The notes under the pieces: model-generated
Database searches by the model: none
Told to the model about the DNA's origin: nothing
What the model saw: only the letters and a program-made list of their open reading frames with translations
Made by a program: the position numbers and the translations under genes
Virus record (IMG/VR): IMGVR_UViG_2537561992_000019
Source of the DNA: a virus
Lineage: Duplodnaviria; Heunggongvirae; Uroviricota; Caudoviricetes
Length of the DNA stretch: 17,225 bases
Direction: 5' to 3' (one strand)
Part shown: one piece after another, positions 5,951-7,662 of the stretch
Layout of the letters: each line of letters opens with the position of its first letter
Position numbering within the stretch: position 1 is the stretch's first letter

Positions 5951-5979
5951 AGAAAAAACAAAACCCGCCGAAGCGGGTT
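5951..5979 (-). terminator. rho-independent terminator at the 3' end of the hok transcript
   Basis: Minus-strand hairpin AACCCGC-UUCG-GCGGGUU followed by UUUGUUUUUUCU. Confidence 0.55.
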
Positions 5980-6047
5980 AAGTGCGGGTGCGTTGAGGAT
6001 GCCTGACACATCAGCGGTGGCGAGGGATTTCTCCCCCGCCTGGTCTC

Positions 6048-6203
6048 TTACTCCTCAGGTTCGTAAGCTGTGAAGACAGCGACCTCCGTCTGGCCGGTTC
6101 GGATTCGTACCTCGCAGAGGTCTTTCCTCGTTACCAGTGCCGTCACTATGACGGTTAAACAGATGACGATCAGGGCGATTAACATCGCCTTTTGCTGCTT
6201 CAT
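6048..6203 (-). CDS. hokD: Hok-family type I toxin, 51 aa
   Basis: MKQQKAMLIALIVICLTVIVTALVTRKDLCEVRIRTGQTEVAVFTAYEPEE matches HokD/RelF as I recall it; ATG at 6203..6201 with AGGAGA Shine-Dalgarno. Confidence 0.9.
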   Translation of the reverse strand: MKQQKAMLIALIVICLTVIVTALVTRKDLCEVRIRTGQTEVAVFTAYEPEE

Positions 6204-6375
6204 AACCTGCTTCTCCTTGCCTTTCGGCGCGTAAGAGGCTAACCTACGTTTGTGAAGCATAGATTGGGCCTCAGATTAATGTTAAGCGTCTTGCAGGACG
6301 CGTAATGTTAACTGGGGCTTTTCTCTGTCTGCCTTACGGTGGCATGCCCGAGGCAGACAGCCTCAAGCACCCGCA
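6204..6375 (-). promoter_or_regulatory. hok mRNA 5' leader, including a mok-like in-frame start at 6260
   Basis: 5' end sequence UGCGGGUGCUUGAGGCUGUCUGCCUC resembles the 5' end of plasmid R1 hok mRNA (recalled) and is complementary to the 3' end at 5983..5998. Confidence 0.5.
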
Positions 6376-6378
6376 GCA

Positions 6379-6406
6379 ATTCTACTTAACTCTCGCTTTA
6401 CAGCAA
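6379..6406 (-). promoter_or_regulatory. candidate sigma-70 promoter of hok mRNA (-35 TTGCTG, 16-nt spacer, -10 TAGAAT)
   Basis: Hexamers read on the minus strand, correctly placed 5-7 nt upstream of the inferred 5' end. Confidence 0.4.
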
Positions 6407-6446
6407 ACCGTTTTGCCCGATATGGGAATTCCCATACGGAATGAAT

Positions 6447-6551
6447 TCAGTTCCCCAGGCGCTCCATCAAAAACACAACCAGGCAGTAAACACCCACAAC
6501 AGCAATAACAGCCAGAGCGCCTTCCATTACCAGTGAAATATCATCCGACAT
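6447..6551 (-). CDS. 34-aa hydrophobic peptide (MSDDISLVMEGALAVIAVVGVYCLVVFLMERLGN)
   Basis: ATG at 6551..6549 preceded by GGGAGGG at ideal spacing; single predicted transmembrane helix. Below the ORF-track size cutoff. Confidence 0.4.
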   Translation of the reverse strand: MSDDISLVMEGALAVIAVVGVYCLVVFLMERLGN

Positions 6552-6660
6552 ATTCCCTCCCTTGGTGTGAATCCCGGCGAACGTTTTTACCCCCACCGAC
6601 AAATAACATATACTAGAAAAGCAATAGCTATAGCAACGCCTGCAAATGCATCTGGCCGGC

Positions 6661-7224
6661 TCATTGGTTCTCCCCCTGTGTCGCTTCTACTGCGATCTGA
6701 CTGGCGTATTCGTTAATGGTAACGATAAGTTCTTGCTCGGCCTCATCCAGACAACTACCGATACCTCGCCTGTCCACTTCAGAAGCATCGAAATCTGCAC
6801 GAAGCCTGGCGACCTTCAGGATTGCGGACAACACCTCATCAGGGATTGCCGGAGAGTTGGTTGACGTTTCCGAGATTATCCGAAAATTATTGGTTGACGA
6901 ACCCTTATTTTCCCGAAAGTTTCCAGCCTGAAGCATGGCGGCGCGGTGACACCAGATAATCCAGCCAAGCGCCATATCCCATGCCATGTATTCTCTATCG
7001 CCATTTTTTGCTCTGCGGCGATCTACAGATTCCCCGAAACGCTTCTCCATAAATAATTCATAGGCTGCCCGTTCATCCGATACTGATGCCAGTGATGCCA
7101 GTGCAATTTTTAATGCGGTAAGCATGTTGTTTTGATCTTCATCGAGTCCGAACGGTATTTCATCCCGTGATGACTCAATTCCGGTAATCGTGTACTGTAG
7201 CCATTCTTTGGTTAATTCAGTCAT
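6661..7224 (-). CDS. hypothetical protein, 187 aa, acidic, predicted helical
   Basis: ATG at 7224..7222; GC hairpin ACCGCCC-TTTC-GGGCGGT at 7234..7251 just upstream. No recognisable motif. Confidence 0.6.
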   Translation of the reverse strand: MTELTKEWLQYTITGIESSRDEIPFGLDEDQNNMLTALKIALASLASVSDERAAYELFMEKRFGESVDRRRAKNGDREYMAWDMALGWIIWCHRAAMLQAGNFRENKGSSTNNFRIISETSTNSPAIPDEVLSAILKVARLRADFDASEVDRRGIGSCLDEAEQELIVTINEYASQIAVEATQGENQ

Positions 7225-7350
7225 TTTTCACTACCGCCCTTTCGGGCGGTCTCCTGATGTTCTGAGGGTGCAGGAATCCCTCCGGTTAAGGATTTAATAA
7301 AAATCATTTCTGATTTAAATTTTCAGTGTTTAGTTGTTGGTTTATAGCCT

Positions 7351-7662
7351 TTATGCTTCGGCCTTATTTCTCAGCCATACACAAACAGGACCATCTTCGG
7401 TGTCATGTATCGAACCGATAAACCATCCCTCACCTTCTGGTCGCTCAGGTTCCCATGCTGAAATATCAGGGCCATCTGCGTCCAGATTAAAATCATCTTC
7501 ATCCATACTACGGATAGCCCACTGAAGATTATTTTTCTCCATCCAGGCGTTAAACTCTTCCGTTGAAATATATTCCCGACCATCACAGAATTTTTCATAT
7601 TCAGGATGCGTCCAGCAGCCATATTCATTACGTTCCACTGGCATTTCTTTAATTGCGCTCAT
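7351..7662 (-). CDS. hypothetical acidic protein, 103 aa
   Basis: ATG at 7662..7660 preceded by AAGGGGGG; ATGA overlap with the upstream gene stop. Confidence 0.6.
   Translation of the reverse strand: MSAIKEMPVERNEYGCWTHPEYEKFCDGREYISTEEFNAWMEKNNLQWAIRSMDEDDFNLDADGPDISAWEPERPEGEGWFIGSIHDTEDGPVCVWLRNKAEA

Follow-up and report, generated by a model that had tools for sequence, protein, structure and literature searches.

A short prophage gene upstream of hok in Escherichia coli is translated, conserved and predicted to encode a single-pass membrane protein

Escherichia coli has several small inner-membrane regulatory proteins, namely MgrB, MgtS, AcrZ, PmrR and CydX, and lambdoid prophages carry lysogen-expressed accessory genes at variable slots, the so-called 'morons', of which bor and lom of lambda are examples. 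In the Qin prophage of E. coli K-12, a locus of the Hok/Gef type, hokD (relF), is followed by a rem-like gene, ydfU/DUF968 and Q, and is directly preceded by relB-relE. We analysed a 17,225-nt stretch of Caudoviricetes DNA (IMG/VR record IMGVR_UViG_2537561992_000019, referred to as the window and used for all coordinates below) in which the same downstream order is found, with two small hydrophobic open reading frames (ORFs), here named orfA and orfB, in the place occupied by relBE in Qin. The second of these, orfB, is a genuine protein-coding gene whose frame is shown to be under purifying selection and whose product, predicted to span the inner membrane once, is translated efficiently in uninduced growing lysogens. 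It is probably a lysogen-expressed accessory gene that has hok as a co-inherited neighbour.

The comparison with these systems is instructive in both directions. Like the MgrB-type proteins, which fall in the range of about 30-50 aa, orfB has one transmembrane helix and a strong Shine-Dalgarno sequence (SD), is seen by ribosome profiling (Ribo-seq) and has been missed or labelled "hypothetical" by annotation, and its product presumably makes helix-helix contact with a larger membrane protein; unlike them, it has no homology to small-protein families of NCBIfam or Pfam, is prophage-borne and confined to Escherichia, and is paired with a second small ORF. With the lambdoid morons it shares presence or absence among similar prophages, differing flanks and RNA levels well above those of neighbouring early genes, but a consensus scan found neither a promoter nor a terminator of its own, and the coupling of orfA to the preceding gene, described below, suggests membership of an operon rather than an autonomous unit. 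Hok/Gef proteins, here HokD, resemble the orfB product in being small, with a single hydrophobic helix that contains a Cys, and are encoded on the same strand in the same cargo slot, almost always co-inherited. The two are nevertheless unrelated in sequence, and orfB lacks a periplasmic C-terminal domain, an overlapping leader of the Mok kind and a fold-back mRNA architecture, has no detected Sok-like antisense RNA and is freely translated in growing cells.

orfB is an ATG..TGA frame of 34 codons on the minus strand of the window (6447..6551), with the ATG at 6551 and the TGA ending at 6447, and its translation is MSDDISLVMEGALAVIAVVGVYCLVVFLMERLGN (34 aa). A GGGAGGG SD (6555..6561, minus strand) lies 3 nt before the ATG. 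The most hydrophobic 19-residue segment, G11-M29, has a mean Kyte-Doolittle hydropathy of 2.72, the peptide carries a net charge of -3 and is thus acidic, and AlphaFold2 models it as a single unbroken helix from residue 2 to 33 with a predicted local distance difference test score (pLDDT) of 90. From these predictions we infer a single-pass inner-membrane protein with one helix. The initial annotation of this DNA, made by a model from the letters alone, had proposed a 34-aa ORF with a strong ribosome-binding site, a single transmembrane helix and a position just upstream of hok, and all three proposals held, the helix as a prediction and the position on the same strand with the stop codon ~75 nt before the hok transcript start. 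It had also called the gene unannotated, which is incorrect, since RefSeq and GenBank list it as a "hypothetical protein" (WP_001278460.1; ECs_2755 / NP_310782.1 in E. coli O157:H7 strain Sakai), and besides this existing annotation it overlooked the upstream partner ORF, orfA.

The length of orfB is by itself not above chance, because the same 3.5-kb stretch is crossed by 66 ORFs that encode 20 aa or more; the gene stands above chance because it is conserved under purifying selection and has a published ribosome-profiling signal. By the Nei-Gojobori method, the orfB frame of the window compared with that of L089, an allele from a gut metagenome, gave dN 0.151 and dS 0.705 (omega 0.21), and the comparison with the allele L002 gave dN 0.027 and dS 0.171 (omega 0.16). 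The two other sense frames, between the window and L089, had omega values of 0.73-0.82 and stops in both. Most differences in orfB among 19 distinct haplotypes are synonymous, the few replacements are conservative (V8A, I16V, E30D), and in some alleles the stop codon TGA is exchanged for TAA with no change in protein length. The GGGAGGG-type SD is kept, as AAAGGAGGGAAT/AAGGGAGGGAAT, in all alleles of the type found in the window (type 1), including the divergent L089.

Beyond type 1, two further allelic types of orfB were found, and the three are only 47-52% identical although each keeps the ORF, the SD and the position. Type 2 encodes 29 aa (MLVLKCALAITAVMAIYCLAIVLMDRLSD) from a GTG start 5 nt after AGGAGG, and its alleles vary mostly at synonymous sites (e.g., GCA/GCG/GCT); the type 3 product is MLAALKGFVAILAVVAIYCLVVVLMDRLSD. 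In types 2 and 3 the SD is AGGAGG or GGAG, 5-6 nt before the GTG. All types share a small-residue stripe and the motif (V/I)YCL..(V/F)LM(D/E)RL(G/S)(N/D).

The published Ribo-seq survey of Sakai (Huecker et al. 2017, PMC5597208, S2 Table) lists the gene as ECs2755, and we took its values directly from that table. In LB medium, the RNA level was 132.6 reads per kilobase per million (RPKM) and the Ribo-seq level 885.0 RPKM, with a ribosome-coverage value of 6.79 and a coverage of 0.95, which places ECs2755 among the most efficiently translated short genes of exponentially growing Sakai (PMC5597208). Translation in ribosome-profiling data, the absence of which would have refuted the gene by the terms of the initial annotation, is therefore on record. 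The corresponding figures in brain heart infusion (BHI) were 167.7 and 116.7 RPKM, 0.76 and 0.99, and those under BHI stress were 164.6 and 3.8 RPKM, 0.02 and 0.65 (PMC5597208). The same source places the SD 3 bp upstream (dG -6.4), records no terminator and assigns the machine-learning class "real" and the localization "inner membrane, 1 TMH" (transmembrane helix). Two upstream short genes on the same strand, ECs2758 and ECs2760, have RNA levels of only 7.4 and 9.3 RPKM (PMC5597208), so that the RNA of ECs2755 (133-168 RPKM) is ~15-fold higher in these uninduced cultures. This step suggests a transcript start somewhere between ECs2758/ECs2760 and ECs2755, and moron-like expression in the lysogen. 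The start itself was not located; fragments of the region had no match in the transcription-start-site supplement for strain EDL933 (PMC10469882), which is not searchable by sequence.

The window region is 100% identical to many chromosomes of O157:H7 and other Shiga toxin-producing E. coli, and its counterpart in Sakai, also 100% identical, is the lambda-like prophage Sp14. The Sakai genome holds three copies of the module, about 90-100% identical. orfB lies between the replication genes (O/P-type) and the genes for RusA and the antiterminator Q, all on the same strand. Conservation across related prophages, a further check proposed in the initial annotation, was found: among 5,426 complete E. 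coli genomes, 674 contain the 241-bp segment 6430..6670, which also occurs in at least 238 viral contigs of IMG/VR, and the exact protein is encoded on at least 1000 contigs, always named "hypothetical" or "uncharacterized". Roughly 1 in 8 complete E. coli genomes, and most O157:H7 strains, carry the gene.

Its distribution is very narrow. Sequence searches with orfB, orfA and a fused 74-aa form (see below) against Pfam, PHROGs, NCBIfam, PADLOC and the PDB returned nothing above noise, and a full HMMER profile scan of 1.84 billion representatives recovered 14 close relatives at E <= 1e-3 and no distant family, with all recovered contexts in Escherichia. When one genome per GTDB species was scanned, E. 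ruysiae was the only match. orfB belongs to an orphan family restricted to Escherichia lambdoid prophages. A degenerate Hok paralogue was considered and rejected, as hhalign gave a probability of 2.9% (against an alignment of HokD with other Hok sequences) and no match to Pfam HOK_GEF (PF01848) was obtained at E <= 1. No paper in the searchable literature library mentions the locus tag or accessions of orfB, and its motifs had no match in a preprint on small proteins of uropathogenic E. coli.

Immediately upstream, orfA (6587..6664, minus strand) encodes a hydrophobic peptide of 25 aa, MSRPDAFAGVAIAIAFLVYVICRWG, and was recognized from the ORF list and its conservation; it is missing from the RefSeq annotation and almost never annotated elsewhere. 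The orfA start codon shares the sequence ATGA with the stop codon TGA of the 187-aa gene upstream, and from this overlap orfA is read as translationally coupled to that preceding nin-region gene. Type-1 loci always have GGAGG or GGGGGAG 8-10 nt 5' of orfA in addition to the ATGA overlap, and orfA (25-27 aa across alleles) is intact in 89 of 94 of them; no orfA accompanies orfB types 2 and 3. Its alleles are separated by an in-frame indel of 6 nt (MNWPEAFAITGVAMAIAFLVYVICRWG), and that of L089, MTLPDAFAIVGITIAIAIIVYSICRWL, has many substitutions (dN 0.217 relative to the window, dS saturated). The exact 25-aa sequence of the window is absent from a collection of 15 billion proteins, and orfA is shorter than any novel ORF that the Ribo-seq survey of Sakai lists, the smallest of which measure 93 nt (PMC5597208).

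The linker between both ORFs (6552..6586, minus strand) holds the orfB SD and measures 35 nt in the window, 34 nt in L004 and 33 nt in L089, so that the frame relation of orfA and orfB is not conserved. A run of five G directly precedes the orfA stop (GGGGG-TAA; 6590..6594, minus strand) and was G5 in 87/87 aligned loci. Some database proteins of 74 aa join orfA and orfB, and the fusion arises where G6 takes the place of G5 (L178 1075..1082, L179 1075..1082, and L180), in two differing allele backgrounds and three samples. In complete genomes, the alleles closest to these fused ones have G5 and separate ORFs, the G6 allele had no match in 2.9 million viral contigs of IMG/VR, and it is known only from short-read metagenome or Logan contigs, where it may be real variation or an assembly artefact. 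Read from the sequence, the fused protein is exactly what the window would yield after a -1 slip on G GGG GTA, and it is modelled as helix-loop-helix with low confidence (pLDDT 68, predicted template-modelling score (pTM) 0.37). L089 has no G run and has an in-frame TAA in its 33-nt linker. A programmed -1 frameshift at GGGGG-TAA joining orfA to orfB was rejected, given that both the linker length and the G run vary between alleles. We treat the fusions as rare variants, and as a hint of the Rosetta-stone type that both helices work together.

On the other side of orfB, the hok locus begins with a promoter, read from the sequence as TTGCTG-16 nt-TAGAAT (6379..6406, minus strand), whose homologue in L007, TTGGCG-17-TAGAAT, was flagged by the promoter scan. 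It is followed by the hok/sok regulatory RNA (Rfam RF01794; 6198..6372, minus strand; 114.9 bits, E = 4.9e-27) and by the mok ORF (6048..6260, minus strand) with the nested hokD (6048..6203), both from the ORF list and annotation, so that HokD is encoded about 245 nt downstream of orfB. Each of the 84 type-1 loci that extend far enough downstream contains the hok locus, at a fixed distance of 348-351 nt between the two ATG codons; in two of these loci an insertion sequence (IS) lies at the hok SD, and in one hok has a variant start. In type 2, the hok 5' region follows orfB in 80/80 loci, with hok intact in 70 and cut by a contig end, disrupted by an IS or provided with a variant start in the remainder, and type 3 shows the same arrangement before hok. 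Inherited physical linkage is sufficient to account for this association, because the gap is only ~75 nt.

The linkage is not obligate, and most hok loci lack orfB. A query containing the hok leader matches 1,977 genomes, of which 674 carry the module with orfB; among 48 phage records with hok, only 3 encode a homologue of orfB. Intact orfA and orfB also occur where there is no hok, in 11 of the 5,426 complete genomes and in three metagenomic contigs; in this lineage the order is orfA, orfB, the palindrome described below, a remnant of the hok promoter and then convergent ibrB-like and PAPS-reductase genes. Recurrent insertions have inactivated hok in loci of types 1 and 2 in which orfB stays intact, and the transmembrane segment of Hok is essentially invariant, whereas the orfB helix varies widely. 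The mobile-element insertions recur at two points, the hok SD and the hok start codon (L010, L060, L130, L149 and L152 at one; L101 and L140 at the other).

A perfect 16-bp palindrome, TATGGGAATTCCCATA (6421..6436, no strand assigned), separates the orfB stop from the -35 element of hok and may serve as an operator or, lacking a U-tract, as a 3' hairpin. It reaches 22-26 bp in other alleles (26 bp in L093), is absent from type-2 and type-3 loci and is kept in imperfect form in the lineage without hok. The scan found no terminator before the hairpin at 5962..5979, which lies 3' of hok, and hence none between orfB and hok. The orfA-orfB RNA folds no better than its shuffles (z = +1.29), and its centroid structure leaves the orfB SD unpaired. 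A promoter that the initial annotation had considered plausible in 6552..6660 was not borne out, as that interval is mostly orfA and the consensus scan returned no minus-strand site there. The Rfam scan returned no RNA family over 6447..6664, its only hit in this region being sok/hok at 6198..6372, and no plus-strand promoter-like site reading into orfB was found by consensus, so that the antisense RNA for which the initial annotation had proposed a search was not detected over 6447..6551. One plus-strand promoter-like sequence, TTTACC-17-TATACT (6586..6614), would drive RNA antisense to the 5' end of orfA and falls in a 40-nt stretch invariant among type-1 alleles; it has 9 of 12 consensus positions, and such sites are within the number expected by chance. 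Downstream of hok, a weak sub-threshold Rfam match to isrK, a small RNA of Salmonella prophages (5958..6039, minus strand; 27.2 bits, E = 0.0018), overlaps the terminator-like hairpin at 5962..5979.

Taken together, we favour the view that orfB is a real inner-membrane peptide gene, expressed in the lysogen as an accessory function, and that hok is a neighbour inherited with it. In the window, orfB follows orfA in a tandem of small hydrophobic ORFs that occupies a variable cargo slot between the replication genes and Q, directly before a hokD-type hok/sok locus, with orfA coupled to the preceding nin-region gene and orfB using its own strong SD. Made in the lysogen like a moron, the peptide would insert into the inner membrane as one helix and act by helix-helix contacts, through its small-residue stripe and the (V/I)YCL...LM(D/E)RL motif. 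Probably in concert with the orfA helix, it would modulate some process at the membrane, with superinfection exclusion, defence and a host membrane protein as candidates; orfB would not be a self-poisoning toxin, and the association with hok would mainly reflect inherited physical linkage rather than obligate functional dependence. orfB may also be the small membrane regulator that the initial annotation had offered as one option.

Several observations weigh against this interpretation. Translation of orfB falls sharply under stress, to the ribosome-coverage value of 0.02, and the consensus scan returned no minus-strand promoter-like site anywhere in 6552..7400. The RNA comparison rests on a supplementary table restricted to short genes, and some cross-mapping of reads is possible because Sakai has three copies of the module at about 90-100% identity. 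Types 2 and 3 have an N-terminal flank charged +1, against -3 for type 1, and since these charges conflict between allelic types they do not settle the membrane topology. Lastly, the near-perfect linkage with hok (about 165 of about 168 sampled loci) could reflect a functional tie.

Such a tie would be explained if orfB were a dedicated partner of hok/sok, either acting as a third component, at the protein level, that tunes Hok in the membrane (as an immunity or anti-pore factor, or as a co-toxin) or insulating the 5' end of hok from read-through by its own translation. The constant distance to hok in all sampled hok-type loci of the three orfB types fits this idea, as do the persistence of the linkage although orfB alleles diverged to ~50% identity while hok remained nearly identical, the lack of a terminator in the scanned interval between the genes, the conserved palindrome and the conserved Cys in the helix, as in Hok. 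We consider it unlikely, however, given that orfA and orfB outlast the replacement or IS inactivation of hok, that most hok loci, including K-12 hokD, have no orfB, that the Hok transmembrane segment has stayed invariant next to a variable orfB helix and that the 75-nt gap lets passive linkage explain the association. Somewhat more doubtful still is a bolder proposal, in which orfA and orfB form a two-peptide membrane module, at times fused by G5/G6 slippage, that serves as a third component of prophage hok/sok and might gate or neutralise Hok pores or time Hok killing during induction or phage attack. If this were true, the textbook two-part hok/sok would be a three-part system in many E. coli prophages.

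The remaining alternatives concern the nature of the product. orfA and orfB could specify one two-helix membrane protein of 74 aa, from the G6 allele or by an occasional -1 slip on GGGGG, with the 34-aa product being secondary; the fused ORFs in two allele backgrounds, the exact match of the product expected from slippage, a linker that is stop-free in the orfB frame, where two of its three polymorphisms are synonymous, and the predicted helix-loop-helix all speak for it. The split G5 state in every aligned locus and in all complete genomes checked, the confinement of G6 to short-read contigs, the shifting frame relation (L004, L089), the occurrence of types 2 and 3 without orfA, the strong SD of orfB kept everywhere and the weak fused model make this quite improbable. 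That orfB is translated but functionless, a proto-gene or a hitch-hiker beside the constrained hok RNA locus, would agree with its shortness, its lack of any known family or structure match and the mere 14 relatives recovered, but sits badly with an omega of ~0.2 at well-diverged synonymous sites, with an ORF, SD and motif maintained in alleles whose DNA has diverged far beyond the hok region, with retention after hok loss and with a stop-codon swap that keeps the protein length; we regard it as very improbable. The type I toxin that the initial annotation had also put forward, a membrane-damaging peptide curbed by an antisense RNA, fares slightly worse still. Its size, its single hydrophobic helix and its place beside a bona fide type I toxin locus would agree with this, yet the peptide is heavily translated in exponential growth without apparent cost, its SD is open in RNA that shows no excess folding, no Rfam match or antisense promoter-like site covers the gene, the peptide is acidic and not cationic, its placement behind the coupled orfA is operon-like and it has no homology to Hok.

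The gene tag ECs2755 and its Ribo-seq support in a supplementary table were already known. New here are the pairing of two conserved small hydrophobic ORFs, the three divergent types at a fixed distance before hokD-type loci and the finding that orfB is a poor toxin candidate; in the literature library searched, neither orfA as a partner nor the series of alleles nor the near-constant linkage with hok appears to have been reported. A functional linkage with hok, if true, would change the picture of a classic toxin-antitoxin system; otherwise, orfB is one more uncharacterised small membrane protein of prophages.

The surroundings of orfB and hok are variable on both sides. In the window, the upstream neighbour is the 187-aa gene ECs_2756 (6661..7224, minus strand), which overlaps orfA and whose place is taken in other prophages by DUF551-type genes or IS elements; overall, the 187-aa gene, DUF551 genes, IS5, ORF6N or a divergent 449-aa gene were found upstream. 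The cargo 3' of hok consists of rem/DUF968, of a doc-type gene and a RelE/ParE-type toxin-antitoxin gene, or of FkbM methyltransferases. That orfB and hok stay together while both flanks vary is cargo-slot behaviour. In different prophages the slot 3' of hok (L003 526..1710, L005 1087..1993, L177 2572..3473) holds RelE/ParE- and doc-type toxin-antitoxin genes or FkbM and TRM5-like methyltransferases, a variety that points to a hotspot for accessory or defence genes between the nin genes and DUF968/Q. Further upstream, a GC-rich hairpin, ACCGCCC-GAAA-GGGCGGT (7232..7255, minus strand), stands between a GGAG motif and the ATG of ECs_2756, and might bring the distant SD near the start codon or regulate translation.

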